Shown here piece by piece: positions 26,251-57,479 of a DNA stretch of 64,000 bases. Each line of letters starts with the position of its first letter. Positions within the stretch are counted from its first letter, which is position 1. Source of the stretch: Escherichia coli (lineage in GTDB: Bacteria > Pseudomonadota > Gammaproteobacteria > Enterobacterales > Enterobacteriaceae); the NCBI RefSeq assembly GCF_016026235.1, contig NZ_CP065613.1; one strand, given 5' to 3'. The notes beneath the pieces are model-generated. The model was not told the origin of the DNA, ran no database searches, and saw only the letters and a program-made list of their open reading frames with translations. A program made the translations under genes and the position numbers.

Positions 26251-27749
26251 CAGAAGCGCTCCAGTTCAGGAAAAGGTAAATGACCGTGATGCACATGCAT
26301 GGCACCAAATTCAGCACAGCGGTGTAGCGTGGGAATGTTTTTCCCAGGGTTCAGCAAACCATCGGGGTCAAACGCCGCCTTGACCGCATGGAAGGTCGTG
26401 ATTTCACCGCTGTTGAACTGGGCGCACATTTGATTGATTTTTTCTCGCCCGATGCCATGTTCCCCACTGATGCTGCCGCCAACTTCAACGCAGAGTTCGA
26501 GGATCTTCCCGCCCAGCTCTTCCGCGCGGGCAAATTCACCGGGTTCGTTGGCATCGAAAAGGATTAACGGGTGCATGTTGCCATCTCCGGCATGAAAGAC
26601 GTTGGCAACACGTAAATCATATTGCTGCGATAAACGGGCAATGCCTTCCAGTACGCCAGGCAGGGCATGGCGCGGGATGGTGCCATCCATGCAGTAGTAA
26701 TCCGGGGAGATACGTCCTACCGCTGGGAACGCATTTTTGCGACCGGCCCAGAAACGTACGCGCTCTGCTTCGTCCTGTGCCAGACGGACGTCAGTCGCGC
26801 CCGCTTTCAACAAGATGTCGTTGACCCGCTCGCAGTCTTCCTGTACGTCAGACTCCACGCCGTCCAGCTCGCATAACAAAATCGCTTCGGCGTCGACGGG
26901 ATAACCGGCATGAATAAAATCTTCCGCCGCGCGGATCGACAGGTTATCCATCATCTCCAGCCCGCCGGGGATAATGCCATTGGCGATGATGTCACCAACC
27001 GCAAGTCCGGCTTTTTCTACCGAGTCAAAGCTTGCTAACAGAACCCGCGCCACGGGCGGCTTCGGCAGCAGTTTTACCGTCACTTCGGTGGTCACGCCGA
27101 GCATACCTTCCGATCCGGTGAACAACGCCAGCAGGTCAAAACCAGGCGAATCCAGCGCATCCGATCCCAGCGTCAGTGCCTCGCCATCCAGCGTTTGCAC
27201 TTCAATTTTCAGCAGGTTATGTACGGTCAGACCATATTTCAGGCAGTGGACGCCGCCGGCATTTTCTGCCACGTTGCCGCCAATGGAACAGGCGATTTGT
27301 GAGGAAGGGTCCGGTGCGTAGTAGAGATTATGCGGTGCAACGGCCTGGGAGATCGCCAGGTTACGCACGCCTGGCTGCACGCGCGCGCGGCGACCAACGG
27401 GGTTAATGTCGAGGATCTTTTTAAAGCGCGCCATCACCAACAACACACCTTTTTCCAGCGGCAGCGCGCCACCAGAAAGCCCGGTGCCTGCACCACGGGT
27501 CACCACCGGTACACGCAGGCGATGGCAGACAGCCAGAATCGCTGTCACCTGTTCCATTTGCTTAGGCAGAACAACCAGTAATGGACGCGTGCGATACGCG
27601 CTCAACCCGTCACACTCGTAAGGAATGATCTCCTCATCGGTATGCAGGATCTCAAGTCCAGGGACATGCTCACGCAGTGCCATCAGTACCGATGTGCGGT
27701 CGACATCGGGTAAAGCGCCATCAAGACGCTCTTCGTACAAGATGCTCAT
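26250..27749 (-). CDS. glcD: glycolate oxidase subunit GlcD
   Basis: 499-aa FAD-linked oxidase, first gene of the operon. Confidence 0.9.
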   Translation of the reverse strand: MSILYEERLDGALPDVDRTSVLMALREHVPGLEILHTDEEIIPYECDGLSAYRTRPLLVVLPKQMEQVTAILAVCHRLRVPVVTRGAGTGLSGGALPLEKGVLLVMARFKKILDINPVGRRARVQPGVRNLAISQAVAPHNLYYAPDPSSQIACSIGGNVAENAGGVHCLKYGLTVHNLLKIEVQTLDGEALTLGSDALDSPGFDLLALFTGSEGMLGVTTEVTVKLLPKPPVARVLLASFDSVEKAGLAVGDIIANGIIPGGLEMMDNLSIRAAEDFIHAGYPVDAEAILLCELDGVESDVQEDCERVNDILLKAGATDVRLAQDEAERVRFWAGRKNAFPAVGRISPDYYCMDGTIPRHALPGVLEGIARLSQQYDLRVANVFHAGDGNMHPLILFDANEPGEFARAEELGGKILELCVEVGGSISGEHGIGREKINQMCAQFNSGEITTFHAVKAAFDPDGLLNPGKNIPTLHRCAEFGAMHVHHGHLPFPELERF

Positions 27750-27999
27750 GAGTAGGCTTCGCTTTGTTATGTTGTGTGGCAGCTGATTTTTGCGCGCTGC
27801 TTCTGTGAACAGTTATTAAGCGGGCTTTTCGTTTTCGTCTATCTCTTTAGCTACCGGTCAGACCATTTTTTTTCCAGCTCTGTGACCTTGTCTTGGTTAA
27901 GTTAATGTTAAATTTATGTAACATAATCACTTGCGTGATGTGCGTGTTTTGCGAGTTAAGAACAGAAAAATTGGTCCTACCTGTGCACGAGGTCTGGGA
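27750..27999. promoter_or_regulatory. divergent glcD / glcC promoter-operator region
   Basis: Non-coding spacer between divergently oriented glcD and glcC; individual sites not resolved. Confidence 0.4.
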
Positions 28000-28764
28000 A
28001 TGAAAGATGAACGTCGCCCTATTTGCGAAGTGGTTGCAGAGAGTATCGAACGGTTAATTATCGACGGCGTACTGAAGGTCGGTCAGCCGCTTCCCTCGGA
28101 ACGTCGACTGTGTGAAAAGCTCGGCTTCTCACGCTCCGCACTGCGTGAAGGGCTGACCGTGCTGCGCGGGCGCGGGATTATTGAAACGGCGCAGGGTCGC
28201 GATTCTCGTGTCGCACGGCTTAATCGGGTGCAGGACACCAGCCCGCTAATTCATCTGTTCAGCACGCAGCCGCGAACGCTGTACGATCTGCTTGATGTTC
28301 GCGCATTGCTGGAGGGCGAATCGGCAAGGCTGGCGGCAACGCTGGGAACGCAGGCTGATTTTGTTGTGATAACCCGCTGTTATGAAAAAATGCTCGCCGC
28401 CAGTGAGAACAACAAAGAGATTTCGCTGATCGAACATGCGCAGTTGGATCACGCTTTCCATCTCGCCATTTGTCAGGCTTCTCACAATCAGGTGCTGGTG
28501 TTTACGCTGCAATCATTGACCGATCTGATGTTTAATTCAGTGTTTGCCAGCGTAAATAATCTCTACCATCGACCACAGCAAAAAAAGCAGATCGATCGCC
28601 AGCATGCGCGGATCTACAACGCGGTGTTGCAGCGGCTGCCGCACGTCGCCCAGCGCGCAGCACGCGATCATGTGCGGACCGTGAAAAAGAATCTCCACGA
28701 TATCGAGCTGGAAGGCCACCATTTGATTCGCTCGGCGGTGCCGCTGGAGATGAACCAGAGTTAG
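28000..28764 (+). CDS. glcC: GntR/FadR-family transcriptional activator of the glc operon
   Basis: Start at MKDERRPICEVVAESIER; the track ORF begins at an upstream TTG. Confidence 0.85.
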   Translation: MKDERRPICEVVAESIERLIIDGVLKVGQPLPSERRLCEKLGFSRSALREGLTVLRGRGIIETAQGRDSRVARLNRVQDTSPLIHLFSTQPRTLYDLLDVRALLEGESARLAATLGTQADFVVITRCYEKMLAASENNKEISLIEHAQLDHAFHLAICQASHNQVLVFTLQSLTDLMFNSVFASVNNLYHRPQQKKQIDRQHARIYNAVLQRLPHVAQRAARDHVRTVKKNLHDIELEGHHLIRSAVPLEMNQS

Positions 28765-28770
28765 CTGGTA

Positions 28771-29913
28771 TTAAATTTGCTTTTCATACAATCGGTAACG
28801 CTTGTACGGCTCCGCCCCAATGCGTTCCAGCATGTTATTCATGCCTGTATTGGTTTCGAGGATCCATGACATCTCCAGCGCATCGATCTTCCGGCGGGCA
28901 AACGGATCGCGTAAGGCTTCAATCAATAACAGCGCAATCACCGGGCCGATGCGGCTGAACTGATACTCGTCGCGCACGCCCATCAGCGGTACTCGCGCAG
29001 TTCGCACACCGCTGACTTTCAAACGCCACAGCAATTTTGCCCAGCCGAAGGGAAAGAGCGATCCGTTCAGATCGGCAATCGCCTCGTTGATGTTCGGCAA
29101 GCCGACAATAAACGCGCAGGGTGCAGAATCAATCTCAGCGATATAGATCATATCGTCCGGCACCAGATATTTAAGTTGATCGCCCATGGTCGCGAATTCA
29201 TGTTCGGTAAACGGCACAAATCCCCAGTTGTGCTGCCAGCCAGAGTTGAAAATCTCACGCAGGATCTGCATTTCTTCGGCAAACCGCTGACGATTGATGC
29301 AGCGAATGGTCACCTTTTTGCGCACCTGATCCATCAGTTTTTTTAGCGCCGGAGAGAAAGTGAGATCGGTTCGCTGCATCCACCACGCCAGTAAATCAAT
29401 GCCTTTGTGATAACCCAGTTGTTCAATATGCGCGGCATACCACGGTTTGCCGTGTGGCATCATCGCACAGGGTGGTGTGTCAAAACCTTCAATCAGTAAT
29501 CCGCTTTCCTGATTGATATTCAGGCTGAAAGGACCGCTGATCTTACTTGCACCTTGTGACTTCAACCACGCTTCCGCTGCGCCAAACAACGCGGCAAAAA
29601 CCTGCGGATCATCAATGGCGTCAATCATGCCGAAATGACCGGTATCTTCACCGTAACGCTCACGGTGCAAGGTATCTATTTGCGCGGTAATACGCCCAAC
29701 TATCTGCCCCGCTTTTTTTGCCACCCACGCCTGCCAGATGATATGGTCCGTCCCCGGATTTTTCGCAGACAAATGCTCGTTGCGTTCAATGAATAAAGGG
29801 GGTATCCAGTTTGGATCGTCGGGATAAAGTAATGACGGAAAAGCGATAAATGCCTTAAGGTCATTTTTATTAATTACTTTTTCAATTTTAATCATCAGCA
29901 GATCGCATTCCAT
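28771..29913 (-). CDS. yghO: YghO-family protein, putative GNAT-like N-acyltransferase
   Basis: 380-aa ORF convergent with glcC and divergent from the FAAL operon; the acyltransferase assignment is inferred, not motif-proven. Confidence 0.55.
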   Translation of the reverse strand: MECDLLMIKIEKVINKNDLKAFIAFPSLLYPDDPNWIPPLFIERNEHLSAKNPGTDHIIWQAWVAKKAGQIVGRITAQIDTLHRERYGEDTGHFGMIDAIDDPQVFAALFGAAEAWLKSQGASKISGPFSLNINQESGLLIEGFDTPPCAMMPHGKPWYAAHIEQLGYHKGIDLLAWWMQRTDLTFSPALKKLMDQVRKKVTIRCINRQRFAEEMQILREIFNSGWQHNWGFVPFTEHEFATMGDQLKYLVPDDMIYIAEIDSAPCAFIVGLPNINEAIADLNGSLFPFGWAKLLWRLKVSGVRTARVPLMGVRDEYQFSRIGPVIALLLIEALRDPFARRKIDALEMSWILETNTGMNNMLERIGAEPYKRYRLYEKQI

Positions 29914-30283
29914 AGTTCTGTGGGTAACAAATAATTAACGGTGACAAACAGGTTGCAACAGCAACGAATGGCACCTTAATAATCAACCCAATGAATACAA
30001 ACGACGAATAAATAGTATTTATTAATGATTACGATAAGGTCAAAGACTACACAGAAGCGCCACAATGCCTTTTGTCGATTTAAGGCGACCGGACAAGGCT
30101 TCTTCTTAATATATTCATAAATTAAATATCATTCACAATAAAAACAAAAAACTTAAACTCATTATTTAAATCAATGTTCATTTTCACACCGATGAAAATA
30201 CTATCTCATTTATCTTTTATGCCTATATAATCCACCGCATTATTGTCATTTTATTTTTGATATCCAATTTTTTCGTGGTGTAT
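29914..30283. promoter_or_regulatory. AT-rich divergent promoter region between yghO and the FAAL operon
   Basis: About 370 bp of very AT-rich DNA with A/T tracts between two divergent genes. Confidence 0.35.
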
Positions 30284-32005
30284 ATGTCTAATAAAATCTT
30301 TACGCATTCCCTACCTATGCGCTATGCCGATTTTCCAACGCTGGTTGATGCTTTGGACTACGCCGCTCTGAGTAGCGCCGGAATGAATTTTTATGACAGA
30401 CGTTGCCAACTTGAAGATCAACTGGAATATCAGACGTTAAAAACGCGTGCCGAAGCTGGTGCGAAGCGGTTGTTATCGCTGAACCTGAAAAAAGGCGAAC
30501 GCGTGGCGCTGATTGCCGAAACGAGTAGCGGGTTCGTAGAGGCTTTTTTTGCCTGTCAGTATGCTGGCTTAGTCGCCGTCCCGTTGGCGATTCCAATGGG
30601 CGTCGGTCAGCGGGATTCCTGGAGCGCCAAACTCCAGGGTTTACTGGCAAGTTGCCAGCCCGCAGCCATTATCACTGGTGATGAGTGGTTGCCACTGGTC
30701 AATGCCGCGACGCATAACAACCCCGAATTACATGTTTTAAGCCACGCCTGGTTTAAGGCATTACCGGAAGCCGATGTTGCGCTCCAGCGTCCAGTTCCGA
30801 ACGATATCGCCTACCTCCAGTACACCTCCGGCAGCACCCGTTTTCCCCGTGGCGTCATTATCACCCATCGCGAAGTGATGGCTAATCTACGTGCTATAAG
30901 CCACGATGGCATTAAATTACGCCCTGGCGACCGCTGCGTCTCCTGGCTGCCTTTCTACCATGATATGGGACTGGTCGGCTTTCTCCTGACCCCCGTCGCC
31001 ACGCAACTTTCAGTAGATTATTTGCGCACTCAGGATTTTGCCATGCGTCCTTTGCAATGGCTTAAATTGATCAGTAAAAATCGCGGCACCATTTCCGTTG
31101 CGCCGCCGTTTGGCTATGAATTGTGCCAGCGCCGCGTGAATGAAAAAGATCTCGCTGAACTGGATCTTTCCTGCTGGCGCGTCGCTGGTATTGGTGCAGA
31201 ACCCATCTCCGCAGAACAACTCCATCAATTCGCTGAATGTTTCCGTCAGGTTAACTTTGACAATAAAACTTTCATGCCGTGCTACGGACTGGCAGAAAAT
31301 GCGCTGGCTGTCAGCTTCTCTGATGAAGCCTCCGGGGTTGTGGTTAACGAAGTGGATCGCGACATCCTCGAATATCAGGGTAAAGCCGTCGCGCCGGGTG
31401 CAGAGACACGCGCCGTATCGACTTTCGTCAACTGCGGCAAAGCGTTGCCGGAACATGGTATTGAAATCCGCAATGAAGCAGGTATGCCGGTCGCGGAACG
31501 TGTGGTAGGCCATATTTGCATCTCCGGTCCCAGTCTGATGAGCGGTTACTTTGGCGACCAGGCTTCGCAAGACGAGATTGCCGCGACGGGCTGGTTAGAC
31601 ACCGGCGACCTCGGTTATCTGCTGGACGGTTATCTGTATGTCACCGGACGCATTAAAGATCTGATTATTATTCGTGGCCGTAATATCTGGCCGCAGGATA
31701 TTGAATATATTGCGGAACAGGAACCGGAAATTCATTCTGGCGATGCGATTGCTTTTGTTACCGCCCAGGAAAAAATCATTTTGCAGATCCAGTGTCGGAT
31801 CAGCGATGAAGAACGTCGCGGACAGCTTATCCACGCGCTGGCAGCACGGATCCAAAGCGAATTTGGCGTAACAGCGGCTATCGATCTGTTGCCGCCCCAC
31901 AGCATTCCCCGAACGTCCTCCGGCAAGCCTGCCCGTGCGGAAGCGAAAAAACGTTATCAGAAGGCTTATGCTGCAAGCCTTCATGTGCAGGAATCCCTGG
32001 CATGA
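30284..32005 (+). CDS. fatty-acyl-AMP ligase / acyl-ACP synthetase-like adenylating enzyme
   Basis: Adenylation motifs YLQYTSGSTRFPRGV and GWLDTGDLGYL; about 573 aa from the internal ATG (track ORF starts at TTG 30257). Confidence 0.75.
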   Translation: MSNKIFTHSLPMRYADFPTLVDALDYAALSSAGMNFYDRRCQLEDQLEYQTLKTRAEAGAKRLLSLNLKKGERVALIAETSSGFVEAFFACQYAGLVAVPLAIPMGVGQRDSWSAKLQGLLASCQPAAIITGDEWLPLVNAATHNNPELHVLSHAWFKALPEADVALQRPVPNDIAYLQYTSGSTRFPRGVIITHREVMANLRAISHDGIKLRPGDRCVSWLPFYHDMGLVGFLLTPVATQLSVDYLRTQDFAMRPLQWLKLISKNRGTISVAPPFGYELCQRRVNEKDLAELDLSCWRVAGIGAEPISAEQLHQFAECFRQVNFDNKTFMPCYGLAENALAVSFSDEASGVVVNEVDRDILEYQGKAVAPGAETRAVSTFVNCGKALPEHGIEIRNEAGMPVAERVVGHICISGPSLMSGYFGDQASQDEIAATGWLDTGDLGYLLDGYLYVTGRIKDLIIIRGRNIWPQDIEYIAEQEPEIHSGDAIAFVTAQEKIILQIQCRISDEERRGQLIHALAARIQSEFGVTAAIDLLPPHSIPRTSSGKPARAEAKKRYQKAYAASLHVQESLA

Positions 32006-32916
32006 ATCAAACTGTCGCGGTGACGGGCGCTACCGGTTTTATCGGTAAATATATTATCGATAACCTGCTCGCCCGCGGCTTTCACGTTCGCGCATTGACG
32101 CGTACTGCCCGCGCTCACGTCAATGACAATCTCACCTGGGTGCGCGGTTCGCTGGAAGATACTCATTCACTTAGCGAACTGGTTGCCGGAGCCAGTGCGG
32201 TGGTCCATTGCGCTGGGCAAGTGCGCGGACACAAAGAAGAGATTTTTACCCACTGTAACGTTGACGGCAGCCTGCACCTGATGCAAGCGGCAAAAGAGAG
32301 CGGCTTTTGCCAACGTTTTCTGTTTATCTCTTCGCTGGCGGCGCGCCATCCCGAGCTCTCCTGGTACGCAAATTCCAAACACGTCGCCGAACAACGGCTG
32401 ACTGCAATGGCTGACGAAATTACGCTGGGCGTTTTTCGCCCGACAGCCGTGTATGGTCCCGGCGATAAAGAGTTAAAACCGCTGTTTGACTGGATGCTGC
32501 GCGGCCTGCTGCCACGACTTGGTGCACCAGATACACAGCTCTCTTTCCTGCACGTCACCGATTTTGCGCAAGCAGTGGGTCAGTGGTTAAGCGCCGAAAC
32601 TGTACAGACGCAAACCTATGAATTATGCGATGGCGTCGCTGGCGGCTATGACTGGCAACGCATACAGCAACTTGCCGCCAACGTCCGTTGCGGTTCCGTG
32701 CGAATGGTTGGTATTCCTCTGCCGGTACTCACCTGCCTTGCGGATATCAGTACCGCGTTGAGTCGCCTGGCAGGTAAAGAACCTATGCTGACCCGCTCGA
32801 AAATTCGTGAATTAACCCACGCCGACTGGTCGGCAAGTAATAACCGTATTTCTGAAGATATTAATTGGTTTCCCGGGATTAGCCTGGAACACGCATTACG
32901 CAACGGGCTATTTTGA
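32002..32916 (+). CDS. NAD(P)-dependent epimerase/dehydratase-family (extended SDR) reductase
   Basis: N-terminal Rossmann motif VAVTGATGFIGKYI; start overlaps the upstream stop by 4 nt. Confidence 0.7.
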   Translation: MNQTVAVTGATGFIGKYIIDNLLARGFHVRALTRTARAHVNDNLTWVRGSLEDTHSLSELVAGASAVVHCAGQVRGHKEEIFTHCNVDGSLHLMQAAKESGFCQRFLFISSLAARHPELSWYANSKHVAEQRLTAMADEITLGVFRPTAVYGPGDKELKPLFDWMLRGLLPRLGAPDTQLSFLHVTDFAQAVGQWLSAETVQTQTYELCDGVAGGYDWQRIQQLAANVRCGSVRMVGIPLPVLTCLADISTALSRLAGKEPMLTRSKIRELTHADWSASNNRISEDINWFPGISLEHALRNGLF

Positions 32917-32947
32917 TTGTCTTGTTTAAAGGTGTGTTAACGTTTCT

Positions 32948-33196
32948 ATGGTAAATCGTGAAATAGTAATGGATTACATCCTTTCCTGTTTACAGGATTT
33001 GGTCGAAAACGGTGTGGAAATTAAGCCCGACAGCGATCTCGTCAACGATCTTGGCCTGGAGTCGATCAAAGTGATGGATCTCTTAATGATGCTGGAAGAC
33101 AGATTCGATATTTCCATTCCTATTAATATTCTGCTGGATGTCAAAACCCCTGCGCAATTAATGGAAACTCTACTTCCATGGCTGGAGAATAAATAA
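32948..33196 (+). CDS. acyl carrier protein
   Basis: 82 aa with the phosphopantetheine-attachment signature DLGLESIKVMDL. Confidence 0.7.
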   Translation: MVNREIVMDYILSCLQDLVENGVEIKPDSDLVNDLGLESIKVMDLLMMLEDRFDISIPINILLDVKTPAQLMETLLPWLENK

Positions 33197-34368
33197 TGGG
33201 GCTATACGATAAATATGCGCGCCTTGCTGGCGAGCGACTGCAATTTAGTGACAACGGGTTAACACCGTTTGGCACCTGTATTGATGAAGTGTATTCCGCC
33301 ACCGAAGGCCGGATCGGCAATAAAAAAGTGATTCTGGCCGGGACCAATAATTATCTCGGTTTAACCTTTAATCATGATGCCATCAGCGAAGGTCAGGCAG
33401 CGTTAGCGGCCCAAGGCACCGGCACCACCGGTTCTCGTATGGCAAACGGCAGTTATGCGCCGCACCTGGCGTTAGAGAAAGAGATTGCCGAGTTTTTCAA
33501 TCGCCCTACCGCTATCGTTTTTTCAACCGGTTATACCGCTAATTTAGGCGTCATCAGCGCACTTGCCGACCATAACGCCGTGGTGTTACTGGATGCCGAC
33601 AGCCACGCCAGTATTTATGACGCCTGTTCTCTCGGTGGCGCGGAAATTATTCGTTTCCGCCATAACGATGCTAAAGATCTGGAACGGCGCATGGTTCGCC
33701 TCGGTGAACGGGCGAAAGAGGCGATTATCATCGTTGAGGGCATCTACAGCATGCTCGGTGACGTTGCGCCGCTGGCGGAAATTGTTGATATCAAACGTCG
33801 TCTCGGTGGTTATTTGATTGTCGATGAAGCGCATTCGTTTGGCGTGTTAGGCGCAACAGGGCGCGGACTGGCTGAAGCTGTCGGCGTTGAAGATGATGTG
33901 GATATTATCGTTGGTACTTTCAGTAAAAGTCTGGCCTCGATTGGCGGTTTTGCTGTCGGTTCGGAAGCGATGGAAGTGCTGCGCTACGGCAGCCGCCCGT
34001 ATATTTTTACCGCCTCTCCTTCTCCGTCCTGCATTGCGACCGTGCGCTCGTCGTTAAGAACTATTGCCACACAACCAGAGCTGCGGCAAAAGCTGATGGA
34101 TAACGCCAACCATCTGTATGACGGTCTGCAAAAACTGGGTTATGAGTTAAGTTCACATATTAGCCCGGTAGTGCCAGTAATAATCGGTTCGAAAGAGGAA
34201 GGTTTACGCATCTGGCGCGAGCTTATCTCGCTGGGCGTGTATGTGAATCTTATCCTGCCGCCTGCCGCGCCTGCAGGCATCACGCTGCTGCGCTGTAGCG
34301 TAAATGCTGCCCACAGTCGTGAGCAAATCGATGCCATCATTCAGGCATTTGCTACTCTGAAGCAGTAA
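33196..34368 (+). CDS. PLP-dependent alpha-oxoamine synthase (BioF/Kbl/serine palmitoyltransferase family)
   Basis: 390 aa with the conserved PLP-lysine context GTFSKSLASIGGF and a DEAHSFG motif; start overlaps the ACP stop by 1 nt. Confidence 0.75.
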   Translation: MGLYDKYARLAGERLQFSDNGLTPFGTCIDEVYSATEGRIGNKKVILAGTNNYLGLTFNHDAISEGQAALAAQGTGTTGSRMANGSYAPHLALEKEIAEFFNRPTAIVFSTGYTANLGVISALADHNAVVLLDADSHASIYDACSLGGAEIIRFRHNDAKDLERRMVRLGERAKEAIIIVEGIYSMLGDVAPLAEIVDIKRRLGGYLIVDEAHSFGVLGATGRGLAEAVGVEDDVDIIVGTFSKSLASIGGFAVGSEAMEVLRYGSRPYIFTASPSPSCIATVRSSLRTIATQPELRQKLMDNANHLYDGLQKLGYELSSHISPVVPVIIGSKEEGLRIWRELISLGVYVNLILPPAAPAGITLLRCSVNAAHSREQIDAIIQAFATLKQ

Positions 34369-34373
34369 TGTGA

Positions 34374-34406
34374 GCCCGCCGTGGTGTTTGCGCCACGGCG
34401 GGTTTA
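34374..34406. terminator. bidirectional terminator hairpin between convergent operons
   Basis: cccgccgtggtg / tttg / cgccacggcggg perfect stem followed by ttt, between the AOS stop and the convergent permease gene. Confidence 0.55.
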
Positions 34407-35483
34407 ATGTTGTCTGTCATACCAATACACCAGGCTCAACGCCACCAACACAAACGCTACCGGTAAACCGAGCGCGGTAACAGGTGCGCTTAACGCAAAT
34501 AGCAATCCCAGATTAACCATGATTTGATAGCTGATCCAGGTGAGTAAGCCCACGATGACGCCTACAGCGAGACGGCTACCCATCCCAGGCGAACGCGGGG
34601 CAGTAAAGGTAAACGGCACAGCCAGCAAAATCATCGCCAGGGTCAGGATGGGTTGCCCCAGTTTTTCCCACAGTGCAAGGCGGTATTCGCTGCTGGGTTG
34701 CCCGGTTTCCTGCAAATAATGGATGTAATGATTAAGCTGACGGACAGAAAAAGTATTCCCCGGCATTGATAACTCTTCAAGATTCATACTGGTGAAGGCC
34801 GATTGCCAGGCAAGATTATCTAATGTTTCCAGCGTTTCTTTGCCATTCAGCCATTTTTTATGATTCACACCATGCAGGACCCACGTTTTGTCGTCTTTAA
34901 TGGTGGCACTGCGTGCATAAATGTAGGATTCAAGCGAGAGATCGTCGGGATAATGAAATATCTCCACGCCCACCGGCTGGCCCTGCTCGTTCAGCGATTT
35001 CACCGTCACAAATTCATTACCACGCCTGGCCCACAGCATATTGCCGGTAATGTCATCGTCCTCCCCCAACGCGGTGGCGGTCGATTTGATTTGCAGCGCC
35101 TGTTGCTGCAATGGCGACGCCACCCACTCATCTATCGCGCCTAACGAAACAGTCCACAATATCCCGGCAACCAGCGCCACCAGTGCAATACGGAAGATAG
35201 AAAACCCCGTGCTGCGAATGGCGGTAAGCTCACTGTTTTTCGATAACTGCCCCAGGCCAACAATCCCTCCCAATAAGGCGATAAACGGCGAAAGTTCGAC
35301 CAGTGTGCGCGGTAAGGTCATTAGCACCACCAGCACCGCCTGAGTCCAGCGATAACCGCCCGGGCTGACATCATCCAGTTCGTTAATCAGGTTGAAGGTG
35401 GTAAAAAGCGGCAGCAATAGCCCTGCGGCGGCGGCAAAACCGAGAAAGAGATGACGGATTAAATAGCGACTGAAAACATTCAT
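34404..35483 (-). CDS. LptG-like permease (YjgP/YjgQ family), paralog
   Basis: Start at MNVFSRYLIRHLF gives a 4-nt ATGA overlap with the upstream gene; six predicted TM segments around a large periplasmic loop. Confidence 0.6.
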   Translation of the reverse strand: MNVFSRYLIRHLFLGFAAAAGLLLPLFTTFNLINELDDVSPGGYRWTQAVLVVLMTLPRTLVELSPFIALLGGIVGLGQLSKNSELTAIRSTGFSIFRIALVALVAGILWTVSLGAIDEWVASPLQQQALQIKSTATALGEDDDITGNMLWARRGNEFVTVKSLNEQGQPVGVEIFHYPDDLSLESYIYARSATIKDDKTWVLHGVNHKKWLNGKETLETLDNLAWQSAFTSMNLEELSMPGNTFSVRQLNHYIHYLQETGQPSSEYRLALWEKLGQPILTLAMILLAVPFTFTAPRSPGMGSRLAVGVIVGLLTWISYQIMVNLGLLFALSAPVTALGLPVAFVLVALSLVYWYDRQH

Positions 35484-36550
35484 CGGGAAAATTTCTGCAG
35501 CAAAGAGAAGTCGCGTGCGACCAGCATCAGCAGGCCCATTAGCATGAGTCCGGGTACTAACCACAAACCAGGAATGAGGGGAATCGCGCCGTTAGCCACC
35601 AGCGTACGGCAGACGTCGCCGCCATAAAAAATGGCAATAAACAGCAACGTCAGTGGCAATAATGTTGAAAATCGCCCTTGCCGCGGTTTTACCCGACTTA
35701 ATGAAATGGCCAGCAGCGCCATCAACAATGCTGTCAGGCCACGGCTTTGCCGCCATTGCAGTTCGGCATGATCGGCAGGAAATACAGAGCGTGCCAGCTC
35801 CGTGACCGATTTTGCTTTGCGTTTGACGTTAGGGCTTTGATCCAGCGGATTCAGATGTAATTGCAGATTACGGTAGATCTGTTCATTGTCGTCACGCCCC
35901 TGATGATCGAGAAGATAGGCAGTGCCGTTGTGCAACATAACGGTCGGTTTCTCGGGTGATGGGTCAACCACATCAACCGAACGGGCGCGGAAAATGCGGG
36001 TTCGATTGGCAGTAGAAGTATAAATCAGCGCGTCAGTCAGGCGATTATTATCCTGATCAACCGTCTGCGAAAGGATCATTCGTCCGTTATCGTTAGTGTT
36101 AAATTTCTTTGCCCGCAACTGGCGAACATCCAGCTCCGACTGCGACTGCTGCTCCAGTTGATAAATCTGCGCATAAGCCCACGGACGACCATACATCGAC
36201 AGAAGGGTGACAAAAATACTTAGCGGTATCGCCAGATAAAGAACGGCTTTGTACAAGCGTCCCGGACTGCCCCCCGCCGCAGAGATAGCGGTAATTTCCG
36301 AGTCGGTATACATCTGCCCTAGCGTCACGCCAACTGACACATACAGACCAACAGGTAACAACATCTCCAGTGCAATCAGCACTTTGTAGAAAACGATATC
36401 CAGCACAACATCAAGAGCTAATGTCCCATTTGCCGCTTCGGTCAGATAACGCTGTGCGGAGTAGCTGGCGAAAATAAAGATCAGAAAACCGACGATAATC
36501 AGCACCAGACGGCGCGTACCACGCATGATGTAGTGTTCAACCAGCTTCAT
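35480..36550 (-). CDS. LptF-like permease (YjgP/YjgQ family), paralog
   Basis: 356 aa with the same architecture as the neighbour; TM1-loop region GQMYTDSEITAISAAG resembles recalled LptF (YTESEITVMHACG). Confidence 0.6.
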   Translation of the reverse strand: MKLVEHYIMRGTRRLVLIIVGFLIFIFASYSAQRYLTEAANGTLALDVVLDIVFYKVLIALEMLLPVGLYVSVGVTLGQMYTDSEITAISAAGGSPGRLYKAVLYLAIPLSIFVTLLSMYGRPWAYAQIYQLEQQSQSELDVRQLRAKKFNTNDNGRMILSQTVDQDNNRLTDALIYTSTANRTRIFRARSVDVVDPSPEKPTVMLHNGTAYLLDHQGRDDNEQIYRNLQLHLNPLDQSPNVKRKAKSVTELARSVFPADHAELQWRQSRGLTALLMALLAISLSRVKPRQGRFSTLLPLTLLFIAIFYGGDVCRTLVANGAIPLIPGLWLVPGLMLMGLLMLVARDFSLLQKFSR

Positions 36551-36580
36551 CTCACTAACGCCCTCAATCCTTTGAATTTT

Positions 36581-37144
36581 TTATTCATTGATCAGTTTCT
36601 GCGCCAGCGCAATGACATGATCTACCTCTTCCGGCGTCAGGCTGCCGTCCTTTGCCCACTGAATTTGCCCGGTTTTATTCAGCACCAGAATGGTTGAACT
36701 CTGCTCCGGCAAGCGCCAGGCAACGCGTCCCTGTCCATTGCCGTCAATAACGAATTGCGCCCACGGATAGCGGCGTTTATTTTTTTCGATTTTGCCAACG
36801 ACAAAATAGCCAGTACCAAAGATGGCATCATCAGTGTTCACAATGGTGGTGGGCTGAAAACGATCCTGTGGAAAGTTTGCCGCTTCAACCGCTTTAATTA
36901 ACAGTGAGTTCTTCTTCTTCGCTGACTTACGCCCGGCGATATACTGGATAATGCGGACTTTTCCCGCCAATTGTGTGCTGTTCCACTTTTGGTAGTGAAT
37001 TTCGTCGTCGCTATTCAGAAGCAGCTCGCCGCCTTCCTGAATATAAACAGGGGTAACCGTTTTGCCAGTGACGAAATTGTGTGCCTGCACACCCGGGGCT
37101 AAGAGCATGATAATCAGCGCAATAATCAAACGAGATGACATCAT
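36581..37144 (-). CDS. periplasmic protein with signal peptide (YtfJ-like)
   Basis: Signal peptide MMSSRLIIALIIMLLAPGVQA; resemblance to YtfJ is from memory only. Confidence 0.45.
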   Translation of the reverse strand: MMSSRLIIALIIMLLAPGVQAHNFVTGKTVTPVYIQEGGELLLNSDDEIHYQKWNSTQLAGKVRIIQYIAGRKSAKKKNSLLIKAVEAANFPQDRFQPTTIVNTDDAIFGTGYFVVGKIEKNKRRYPWAQFVIDGNGQGRVAWRLPEQSSTILVLNKTGQIQWAKDGSLTPEEVDHVIALAQKLINE

Positions 37145-37152
37145 TGCTCCGG

Positions 37153-37977
37153 TTATAGCGGAAAACGCGAAATCAGCAGCTCTAAGCGCTGGCGAATATC
37201 GCTATCCAGCGCCACCGGTGCATCATACGACTGGCGGTTTTCCATATCATCCGCCACCATGTCGTCGTGTTTATCCCCCATCAGGCCATTAATGGCGGCG
37301 AGGAAACGGGAAATCTGTAACGCCTCTTTATTTTCAGGATCAAGCGATCTTAAGGTGTCGTAATAAGAAACCTGCTGGCTGATGATTTTTCGCACATCAT
37401 GAAATTCCCTGCCGGTTAGTCGCGGTTTGGCAATTATCTCTTTCAGGGCATGCATTTGCTTTTGCCGATAGGCAATAAAACCGCTTACGCTTTCTAACTG
37501 GCTATGGCGTAATGAATAGTTCACCAACGACCAGACCGGAGAGCTTAAATAAATTCGTAACAGGTTGCCGTAATACGACACAATATTTTTCTTACCGTTA
37601 CGAAATCCGTCCTGAAAACGTCCCAGAAAAACGGTCGTTTTGCCGAATAAAAATCTGGCCTGATGCTTTTTTAAATACAGCCGTTGTGCAAAACGTAGAT
37701 GCTTGTAGCGCGCTCGCATGTATTTAAACTGTTTACGCTCGTCTGTCGTCAGCTCATCGCCTTTGGCTTGTTTGCGAATTAAACGAAGTAATTCCTGACG
37801 ATCAACGCCATTGAGCCAGAATTGCAGGCATAACGCGTAATTATCATGGATGATTTCGGTGGTACAACATAGTGCGATAGTCGGCGGCAAACTGACCTGG
37901 GCATCAACAACATCATCTTCCTCAATCGCAACAAATAGATGCTCGCTCGCCTCAAGCGGGAAATATTTTCTCATCAT
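37153..37977 (-). CDS. hypothetical cytoplasmic protein (274 aa)
   Basis: ORF whose start overlaps the flippase stop by 1 nt; no recognisable motif. Confidence 0.45.
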   Translation of the reverse strand: MMRKYFPLEASEHLFVAIEEDDVVDAQVSLPPTIALCCTTEIIHDNYALCLQFWLNGVDRQELLRLIRKQAKGDELTTDERKQFKYMRARYKHLRFAQRLYLKKHQARFLFGKTTVFLGRFQDGFRNGKKNIVSYYGNLLRIYLSSPVWSLVNYSLRHSQLESVSGFIAYRQKQMHALKEIIAKPRLTGREFHDVRKIISQQVSYYDTLRSLDPENKEALQISRFLAAINGLMGDKHDDMVADDMENRQSYDAPVALDSDIRQRLELLISRFPL

Positions 37978-39326
37978 CAGGATTTCTCTCCGGCTGCGTT
38001 ATAAAGCAAGGAATGGCGCTGAAAAAAAGCCTTTAAGATCGGAATTAGCGAAAGCACCACATCCAGACATTGACCGCCGAAATAAGCAAACGCTGCTCCC
38101 AGCACGCCAAACAGATGACAGAACATGAACAGCAATACGATGTAGCCGATTGAGGCGATGGTTTGCGCCACGAGAAAAGCGCGCTGTTTTCCCGCCATCA
38201 ATAGCAATGACTCCTGAGGGAAGCCCAGCATCGAGATCACAATTGCGCCCAGCATCACCTGAATCAGGTCATACGCTTCGAGATACTTAACGCCAAACAC
38301 CAGCGAAATGAGCGGCTTGCCGACGATCAACACCGCGAGCGCCACCAGAATACCGATTCCGCCCGCCAGTAAACCGGACTTCACACCTAACAACCACGGT
38401 CTGGTGGTGCGCGGATCTAAACGCATCACCTCTGGGTAAAAACTTTTACCCAGCAAACCCGCTGGCGTTCCGGCGGCGTCGAAGAATGTCATGGCGATTT
38501 TAAATAACCCGGCGACAGCGGGTCCTAACACGATCCCCACCAACACTGTGCTGCACGAGTTACGCGCCGACCAGATGGAGTGGGCAATGTTGGTTGACCA
38601 GACAAAACTCCACGCGCCTTTAATGTGTCGGGCAGACTCAAACAGATTCAATTTGAAGGCGTTATGGATATTTCTGCGGCGTAATTCGCGCGCGGCAAAC
38701 CACCAGTACATGGTGCCGCCAACCAGATTCGACACGTACCAGGCAATAACAAAACCCGCAAAACCAAAGTCAAAATACCAGGCTGCGACGCTCCCCGCTG
38801 CGCGCAGAAAAGGTTTCGTCGCCTGCTGTACAGCAATCAAATCAAAGCGATCTACCGCACGCAGAATGCCGGTCGGCGTGGAGGAAGCCATTGAAGGAAT
38901 GAGCGTGCAATACAGCGCTGCCAGCCAAAAGCTTTGGTCATCCAGACCTAATGAATGGGAAAGAAAAGGGAGTAAGGCAATGCCGCCGACAATCGCCACC
39001 GCGCCGCTGACGATATCCAGCGAGAAGGAAAATGAGACGACATTGCGAAATTGCTGCGGATTATTGTTGGTTAATGCTGGTGTTCCGTACTGAACCACCA
39101 GCTGCCATGTCTGAAACTTAATAAAATCGCTGATCGACTTGGCGTACGATTGCACAATCACCAGTACGCCAAACATGGCGGGCGTCATCCCTTTACCGGC
39201 ACACGAGAGCGCCAACAGACCCAGCAAGGCGCTCACGACATTACTGGAGCCTAACCAGGCGCTATTGCGAATAATGGTGCGAAACGCGCCATCTGCAAAC
39301 CAATGTTTGATGTTAAAACCCGCCAA
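37977..39326 (-). CDS. yghQ: MOP-superfamily (Wzx-like) polysaccharide/lipid flippase
   Basis: 449-aa protein with about 12 hydrophobic segments. Confidence 0.65.
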   Translation of the reverse strand: MAGFNIKHWFADGAFRTIIRNSAWLGSSNVVSALLGLLALSCAGKGMTPAMFGVLVIVQSYAKSISDFIKFQTWQLVVQYGTPALTNNNPQQFRNVVSFSFSLDIVSGAVAIVGGIALLPFLSHSLGLDDQSFWLAALYCTLIPSMASSTPTGILRAVDRFDLIAVQQATKPFLRAAGSVAAWYFDFGFAGFVIAWYVSNLVGGTMYWWFAARELRRRNIHNAFKLNLFESARHIKGAWSFVWSTNIAHSIWSARNSCSTVLVGIVLGPAVAGLFKIAMTFFDAAGTPAGLLGKSFYPEVMRLDPRTTRPWLLGVKSGLLAGGIGILVALAVLIVGKPLISLVFGVKYLEAYDLIQVMLGAIVISMLGFPQESLLLMAGKQRAFLVAQTIASIGYIVLLFMFCHLFGVLGAAFAYFGGQCLDVVLSLIPILKAFFQRHSLLYNAAGEKS

Positions 39327-56473: not shown

Positions 56474-56594
56474 TCAACATATCCGTTAAACCTTTGTCGC
56501 ATAATTCTGAGGTTTAGGGATCTTCCTGGTTCCCTTATCAACGCATCGAGAGCGTCTACCCTTAAAGGACGTTGAACCTGAAGGGAGAAAAACG

Positions 56595-57479
56595 ATGTCT
56601 CATTTAAAAGACCCGACCACGCAGTATTACACTGGTGAATATCCCAAACAGAAACAACCGACGCCAGGCATCCAGGCGAAGATGACACCGGTACCGGATT
56701 GCGGCGAGAAAACCTATGTTGGTAGCGGTCGCCTGAAAGATCGTAAAGCACTGGTGACAGGGGGCGATTCCGGAATAGGTCGCGCTGCCGCCATCGCTTA
56801 CGCGCGTGAAGGGGCTGACGTGGCGATCAGTTATCTTCCCGTGGAAGAAGAAGACGCTCAGGATGTGAAAAAGATCATTGAAGAATGCGGTCGCAAAGCC
56901 GTTCTGCTGCCAGGCGATTTAAGCGATGAGAAGTTTGCCCGTTCGTTGGTTCACGAAGCGCATAAGGCGTTAGGCGGGCTGGATATTATGGCGCTGGTCG
57001 CCGGGAAACAGGTTGCCATTCCTGATATTGCAGACCTCACCAGCGAACAGTTTCAAAAGACCTTTGCCATTAACGTTTTCGCGCTGTTCTGGCTAACCCA
57101 GGAAGCGATCCCCCTGCTACCGAAAGGTGCAAGTATCATCACCACTTCGTCAATCCAGGCATACCAGCCAAGTCCGCATTTACTGGACTATGCGGCTACG
57201 AAGGCGGCGATTCTGAACTACAGCCGTGGCCTGGCAAAACAGGTCGCGGAGAAAGGTATTCGGGTGAATATTGTCGCGCCAGGCCCTATCTGGACGGCAC
57301 TACAAATTTCCGGCGGACAAACGCAGGATAAGATCCCGCAGTTTGGTCAGAAAACGCCGATGAAGCGTGCGGGGCAACCGGCGGAACTGGCCCCAGTATA
57401 TGTTTATCTGGCAAGTCAGGAGTCGAGCTACGTCACCGCAGAAGTGCACGGTGTGTGCGGCGGCGAGCATTTAGGTTAA
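56595..57479 (+). CDS. yghA: short-chain dehydrogenase/reductase
   Basis: Glycine-rich cofactor motif [12 protein letters not shown]; 294 aa. Confidence 0.85.

Follow-up and report, generated by a model that had tools for sequence, protein, structure and literature searches.

The closest described counterpart of the locus analysed here is the ceramide cluster of Caulobacter crescentus, which comprises spt, acpR, aasR, epi/cerR, aca/bCerS and lptF2/lptG2, and whose LptF2/LptG2 paralogues are required for sphingolipid transport (preprint 10.64898/2026.04.12.717747). The corresponding genes of E. coli BL21(DE3) were described by Padilla-Gomez et al. (2022, PMC9386255) as ECD_02850 (yghO/aca), ECD_02851 (aasR), ECD_02852 (epi), ECD_02853 (acpR) and ECD_02854 (spt). 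In that work AcpREc was found to bear phosphopantetheine, and 3-oxo-sphinganine was made when AasREc, AcpREc and SPTEc were co-expressed (PMC9386255).

For the control region of these genes, the systems to be compared are DNA segments bound by H-NS. The proU and bgl operons provide promoter-level examples of H-NS patches. The H-NS motifs of K-12 are A/T-only 5-6-mers; H-NS tracts longer than 1 kb go with silencing of acquired genes, whereas short patches at promoters ('S_H-NS') are milder modulators that prefer operon-upstream DNA, and of the targets of such patches 40% are altered when hns is deleted (Kahramanoglou et al. 2011, PMC3064808).

The E. coli locus was analysed in a stretch of 64,000 nucleotides, hereafter called the window. 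The gene order is glcDEFGBA (minus strand), glcC, yghO (minus strand), an intergenic gap, and a plus-strand operon for a fatty acyl-AMP ligase (FAAL), an epimerase/SDR, an ACP and Spt. Beyond spt lie convergent genes for LptG- and LptF-like permeases, followed by genes for a YtfJ-family protein and a hypothetical protein, then yghQ, yghR, yghS, yghT and pitB. The genes on either side of the gap, and the gap itself, are as follows.

28771 to 29913, minus strand: yghO (aca), N-acyltransferase, ceramide synthase candidate (open reading frame; annotated YghO; PMC9386255).
29914 to 30283, no strand: intergenic region of 370 bp, 31.1% GC.
30284 to 32005, plus strand: fatty acyl-AMP ligase (aasR), specialised acyl-ACP synthetase (NCBIfam NF006624; PMC9386255).
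32002 to 32916, plus strand: NAD-dependent epimerase/SDR-type reductase (epi, CerR-like; Pfam PF01370, E = 3.7e-23; PMC9386255).
32948 to 33196, plus strand: specialised acyl carrier protein (acpR; Pfam PF00550; PMC9386255).
33196 to 34368, plus strand: serine palmitoyltransferase (spt; NCBIfam equivalog NF047599; PMC9386255).

The FAAL scored 875 bits against NF006624 (cut-off 600) and Spt 599.9 bits against the equivalog NF047599 (cut-off 500), and the two permeases downstream of spt were placed in the LptF/LptG family by Pfam. The features by which a ceramide locus is recognised are present, namely spt itself, a dedicated ACP and a FAAL-type acyl-ACP synthetase beside it, and an epimerase/SDR. 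The gene set is the same as that of the Caulobacter cluster and, as in that cluster, LptF/LptG paralogues adjoin the operon; unlike in Caulobacter, the E. coli aca (yghO) lies directly opposite the aasR operon across the gap. YghO matched no Pfam, NCBIfam or PDB sequence entry, even at E = 10, and is kept at 45-82% identity beside spt clusters across phyla. Synteny in 53 of 80 loci, together with PMC9386255, makes YghO a candidate N-acyltransferase (bCerS/aca). Its first six codons may be untranslated, most cross-genus alignments starting at residue 5-8, near Met7.

The limits of the gap depend on the FAAL start codon. Open reading frame calls place divergent genes on either side of 29914-30283, with the yghO start codon ending at 29913 on the minus strand and the FAAL frame opened by an ATG at 30284. 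In the source record, NZ_CP065615.1, PGAP sets the FAAL start at the second ATG, 30317. RefSeq is inconsistent on this point, the source record and several others using the second ATG and other E. coli records the first. Read from the first ATG, the frame begins with an N-terminal peptide, MS..S(L)PMRYA, that is kept across Enterobacterales from Hafnia to Serratia; the first ATG is therefore favoured as the start, and a gap boundary at 30283 appears better than one based on the PGAP start.

The base composition of the gap bore out the earlier note in its description of a very AT-rich, divergent control region of about 370 bp between yghO and the FAAL gene. Its GC content is low compared with the 52.0% of the whole window, and only 0.7% of 370-bp segments are equally low. 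Seventeen A/T-only runs of at least 6 bases were counted, the longest of 13, with homopolymer tracts of up to 6. TpA steps and A/T-only hexamers are dense, the 57 hexamers placing the gap in the top 0.1% of 370-bp segments. A scan of GC content delimited two features.

29845 to 30320, no strand: full AT-rich domain of 476 bp, 30.9% GC (40-bp GC scan).
30100 to 30283, no strand: FAAL-proximal half, most AT-rich (184 bp, 22.8% GC), including 30105-30204.

The domain takes in the first codons of yghO as well as those of the FAAL gene, and its composition is uneven: the yghO-proximal half of the gap has 39.2% GC, while approximately 100 bp at 30100-30200 have 12-25% GC, and 30105-30204 is the least stable 100-bp duplex of the entire 64 kb. 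AT content is thus well above the 48% average of the window, at 68.9% over 370 bp and 77.2% over 184 bp. When the intergenic regions of at least 40 bp in the window, 24 in all, are ranked by AT content, the gap comes fourth, after those between pitB and gss (28.5% GC), upstream of glcA (29.5%) and between yghS and yghT (30.6%). The gap is clearly non-random when compared with bulk sequence, yet within the range of E. coli promoter regions.

Elsewhere in the window, a Mu-like prophage extends from position 1 to about 18640, with head, tail, baseplate and tail-fibre genes followed by com and mom; its end adjoins a gene fragment (18425-18838) and the 485-bp gap of 29.5% GC upstream of glcA. The yghA gene (approximately 56583-57467) is an annotated pseudogene with an internal stop in the window strain.

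The distribution of the locus was determined in complete E. coli genomes. It occupies one fixed site, between glcC and pitB, in approximately 4,100 of 5,426 genomes (about 76%) and is absent from about 24%. The genes of the locus have 41-54% GC and, compared with the divergent Escherichia lineage L011, dN/dS values of 0.027-0.139 at dS of up to 0.53. A dN/dS of 0.03-0.14 indicates that the genes are used in nature. The divergent layout, with yghO facing the FAAL-SDR-ACP-spt genes, was found in 53 of the 80 loci retrieved from other genera, including Hafnia, Serratia, Erwinia, Citrobacter, Pseudomonas, Nitrococcus and Gemmatimonadetes MAGs. In all 53, the gap is AT-enriched compared with the flanking coding sequence, by 4-27 points, the strongest enrichment being that of E. 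coli (23 points) and Pseudocitrobacter (26-27 points), and across genera the gap keeps a length of at least 270 bp.

In Serratia, Erwinia, Tatumella, Shimwellia, Pluralibacter and Mangrovibacter the gap between yghO and the FAAL gene measures 600-940 bp. FAAL relatives of 45-50% identity, often near yghO and spt homologues, occur in Gemmatimonadetes and in Nitrospirae/Nitrospirota MAGs, so the gene set extends well beyond Proteobacteria.

K-12 and O157:H7 Sakai both lack the locus. K-12 carries an IS5 in its place, with the junctions listed below. In O157:H7 Sakai the retrieved stretch (NC_002695.2, 3852167-3876852) has no glc, yghO or ceramide genes at the position that they hold in the window strain. 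There the phage-like element SpLE3 (espL2, nleB1, nleE, efa1) ends directly against a truncated pitB. LSU61, an atypical O157:H7 strain, carries the locus. A record labelled E. coli DH5alpha (NZ_CP026085.1, 4.83 Mb) contains spt at 99.3% identity; K-12 derivatives lack the locus, and the record is possibly mislabelled.

These data bear on the proposal that the locus is an acquired accessory island under classical xenogeneic H-NS silencing, its product having gone unnoticed for that reason. With such islands the locus shares AT-rich DNA, here in the control region, strain-variable presence, being missing from K-12, Sakai and about a quarter of complete genomes, and apparent quiet in the laboratory, the BL21 chromosomal copies not being visibly productive. 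Unlike in such islands, only the 476-bp control region is AT-rich, against tracts of more than 1 kb for silenced acquired genes; the genes are host-like in GC content and under strong purifying selection, the site is fixed, the layout is widespread, and the six mapped losses or disruptions are secondary, IS-mediated deletions. Recent acquisition or a sporadic distribution is likewise not what was found. The locus is largely not accessory, foreign DNA, the absences that were examined are secondary losses, and silencing of an acquired island is quite improbable. The earlier reading of the region as silenced accessory DNA is thereby not supported. Its suggestion that the locus product has escaped notice is also outdated as regards the locus, since BL21 ECD_02850-02854 have been published as ceramide genes, three of them characterised biochemically, and the UTI89 copy appears among the E. 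coli "sphingolipid operons" drawn in the 2026 preprint (10.64898/2026.04.12.717747).

Sequence constraint within the gap was then compared with that of the neighbouring genes, and the gap was searched for promoter elements and regulator sites. The features obtained are listed below.

30196 to 30283, plus strand: near-invariant block of 88 nt, putative aasR core promoter and 5' leader (conservation).
30226 to 30231, plus strand: perfect -10 element TATAAT, with a weak -35 element ATCTCA at 17-bp spacing (read from the sequence; inside the invariant block).
30132 to 30159, plus strand: alternative promoter-like site TTCACA-16-TAAACT (consensus scan).
30014 to 30043, minus strand: promoter-like site facing yghO, TTGACC-18-AATACT (consensus scan).
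29925 to 29939, minus strand: ArcA-like direct repeat, GTTAATTATTTGTTA, situated 12-26 bp upstream of the start of yghO (no more than a lead).

The block at 30196-30283 differs from L011 at 2 of 88 nt, while dS of the neighbouring FAAL gene is 0.53. In seven diverse E. coli the sequence between about 30160 and the FAAL start hardly varies, and the centre carries substitutions and indels. Identity of at least 99% was found in 2543 of 4151 genomes (61%) for the FAAL-proximal 124 bp (30160-30283), in 1416 of 4107 (34%) for a sample of FAAL coding sequence (30400-30523), in 74 of 3646 for the central segment (30036-30159) and in 1391 of 3628 for the yghO-proximal segment (29914-30035). Constraint on promoter-proximal DNA, as looked for in a sigma-70 promoter, is accordingly present over both 30196-30283 and 30160-30283. 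A non-functional spacer, AT-rich through mutational bias in unconstrained non-coding DNA, would agree with the fast divergence between lineages of the centre (approximately 30036-30100) and of the yghO-proximal part, which carry indels and fall to about 50% identity with the W619/L011 lineage. Against it, conservation of the FAAL-proximal 88-124 bp exceeds what the synonymous rate of the adjoining genes would give, a second block at about 30100-30140 is kept even in the divergent lineage, and the gap is retained in other genera, where it measures at least 270 bp. A mere spacer is highly improbable, and the gap is very probably a functional promoter region.

The TATAAT at 30226-30231 was not reported by the consensus scanner, its -35 element falling below threshold. 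From this element, aasR transcription is predicted to start near 30238, which would give a U-rich leader of about 45 nt. The site TTCACA-16-TAAACT is less likely to be the promoter because its spacer length differs between strains: 9 bp are deleted in strain 4621, and HS has one extra base pair. On the other strand, TTGACC-18-AATACT is kept in most E. coli, and its -35 element is disrupted in the divergent W619 lineage. Promoter-like consensus matches in the gap are in no excess, 4 being found against 3.3 expected from shuffled sequence. Literature searches returned no mapped 5' ends or transcription start sites for the gap.

When the 200 bp preceding FAAL were footprinted across genera, no more than about the last 15 nt of the gap could be aligned. 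The sequence TTCATGGTGTATATG, ahead of the FAAL start, is common to E. coli, Hafnia and Pseudocitrobacter. An alternative leader, GGTGATTTTGAATCTATGGCT..TTTGT.TATG, with an in-frame upstream ATG, occurs in Serratia, Erwinia, Tatumella, Shimwellia, Pluralibacter and Mangrovibacter.

Several further candidates were rejected. Small open reading frames in the gap (21-32 aa) had no supporting evidence. Neither the GC-richer island at the centre nor either of the two leaders gave a significant RNA fold, the best being that of the candidate yghO leader (z = -2.3), whose stem has a 7-nt deletion in the W619/L011 lineage. A repeat search of the gap gave short, chance-level repeats only, and an Rfam scan of 27000-36000 at a permissive threshold gave nothing.

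The main rival explanation is an ordinary activator-dependent promoter region in which H-NS has no role. The AT-richness would then reflect -10 elements, UP-like A/T tracts, easy melting and the presence of two promoters back to back, and quiet in the laboratory would follow from a missing activator or signal, such as a cue from the envelope, phosphate, redox state or host. An invariant block that holds a perfect -10 and a poor -35 has the anatomy typical of an activated promoter. The three window intergenic regions that are equally or more AT-rich, among them that of the core gene pitB, also favour this explanation, as does the occurrence of AT-enriched gaps, with smaller enrichment, in genera lacking enterobacterial H-NS (Pseudomonas, Nitrococcus, Gemmatimonadetes). 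Regulator sites were screened for with consensus strings (CRP, FNR, Fur, PhoB, PhoP, CpxR, PmrA, ArcA, LexA, FadR, IHF, RcsAB, OmpR, Lrp, sigma-54, NarL, SlyA and Fis, and also H-NS), and nothing in the gap survived correction for multiple testing. The best match, GTTAATTATTTGTTA, has two (T)GTTA elements at a distance of 11 bp, shows no variation in seven E. coli and fits an ArcA consensus at 13 of 15 positions, with P about 0.02 before correction for the 20 motifs tried and no significance after it. The screen of some 18 regulators thus yielded no convincing activator site, and the gap region is not among the CRP ChIP sites listed for ETEC H10407. In addition, promoter function does not call for GC as low as 12-25% over 100 bp.

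Insertion sequence junctions provided a further line of evidence. They were located by following up truncated matches to the gap region.

29873 to 30291, no strand: IS junction hot spot, six independent IS1/IS5-family junctions in 419 bp.
K-12: IS5, joining 29873 to 38258.
FORC_082: IS1, junction 29952, other end 43462.
C21: ISKpn26, junction 30109, other end 38947.
ATCC 8739: IS1, junction 30201, other end 43275.
90-1: ISKpn26, junction 30291, other end 43442.
ABWA45: IS1, junction 30291, other end 20690.

Each junction is tied to deletion of all or part of the ceramide locus, in ABWA45 on the yghO side. Three partner ends lie in or beside the very AT-rich gap between pitB and gss, and the three IS5-family junctions are at TTAA or CTAA. 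A 450-bp query centred on the gap gave 32 partial matches and 19 extra split places, against 2 and 3 for a control query in FAAL, 0 and 3 in spt, and 14 and 12 within yghO; these counts are of genomes, not of independent events. The upstream region of bgl is likewise a target of IS5, a feature that the gap shares. Sequence and structure by themselves also draw IS1 and IS5 to AT-rich or easily melted DNA, and for this reason the hot spot alone is no proof of H-NS. Insertion hot spots of the IS5 family, including insH3 in E. coli, have been found in H-NS-bound DNA (Cooper et al. 2024, PMC11335895). The clustering fits DNA that is bound by nucleoid proteins or unusually structured, which counts against the activator-dependent explanation.

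The best match in the gap to the H-NS nucleation consensus (TCGATAAATT-like) is 8 of 10 positions, at 30114 (P = 0.76 in simulations that kept the base composition); the absence of a nucleation motif agrees with an activator-dependent promoter. The GC scan found no AT-rich downstream element inside the genes. K-12, the strain with most H-NS data, has lost the gap region. Literature searches, including those for yghO, yghQ and the ECD_ and ECB_ tags, returned no H-NS ChIP, footprint, hns-mutant or direct expression data for the gap. In BL21(DE3) the T4 protein MotB, which perturbs H-NS, raises 75 genes, none of them from the locus, a result of little weight: bgl is not raised either, and MotB affects only part of the H-NS regulon.

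Expression in BL21 gave indirect information. Plasmid-borne SPTEc alone produced the lipid profile of the empty vector, without 3-oxo-sphinganine, and product appeared when AcpREc and AasREc were added (PMC9386255). By implication, expression of the chromosomal aasR and acpR is poor. The authors raise, as a speculation, further conversion of the product by the chromosomal genes ECD_02852 and ECD_02850 (PMC9386255), which, if true, argues against complete silence.

The gap resembles the short S_H-NS patches of K-12 in being sub-kilobase, AT-rich and dense in A/T-only hexamers, and in that its AT tract overlies the promoter region and is flanked by genes of normal GC. It differs from bgl and proU in lacking both an AT-rich downstream element and a match to the nucleation consensus. 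Binding of the gap by H-NS is plausible, and H-NS probably occupies it in vivo; that H-NS is the main reason for the quiet of the pathway in the laboratory is possible but doubtful. The earlier proposal of H-NS-bound, silenced DNA is in this way upheld in part, in that the composition is of the kind H-NS prefers, six IS junctions fall there and poor expression in BL21 is implied; the missing nucleation motif and the 476-bp length of the tract speak against it. An activator-dependent promoter without H-NS is unlikely.

On balance, the evidence leans towards a conserved, weak core promoter within an AT-rich H-NS/StpA promoter patch that controls the divergent ceramide genes. The gap would serve as a shared divergent control region, acting leftward on yghO and rightward on aasR(FAAL)-epi-acpR-spt. 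The block at 30196-30283 would comprise the aasR core promoter and its U-rich leader of about 45 nt and, with a perfect -10 and a weak -35, the promoter would be weak alone and need an activator or a particular DNA conformation. Nucleoid-associated proteins would find a natural landing site in the easily melting DNA at 30100-30200. The patch of approximately 0.5 kb is most likely coated by H-NS/StpA, which would dampen both promoters in standard laboratory growth, and H-NS would do so as a short promoter-type patch, not as a long xenogeneic-silencing filament. In these terms the gap is an ordinary AT-rich control region for which H-NS is a reasonable, predicted modulator.

A gap of this kind, with a possible H-NS patch, is routine for E. 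coli and would not surprise specialists. The cluster of IS1/IS5 junctions is a new, small and concrete addition that explains the loss of the pathway in K-12 and other lineages. A more far-reaching proposal, which we regard as speculative and unlikely to hold in full, is that most E. coli, BL21 included, carry an intact and selected ceramide pathway gated at the 0.5-kb patch by H-NS/StpA and a counter-silencing signal, and that the same patch captures IS elements and in this way has led to repeated destruction of the locus (K-12, ATCC 8739 and other lineages).

No report of native sphingolipid production by E. coli was found in the literature, although the enzymes work when over-expressed and the genes are under selection in about three quarters of strains. 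The gap, which holds the only conserved non-coding block of the locus and is present in common laboratory strains (BL21 and its derivatives), is the place at which to test for such production. If gating by H-NS/StpA is true, removal of H-NS or replacement of 30100-30283 in BL21 would lead E. coli to make its own sphingolipid.
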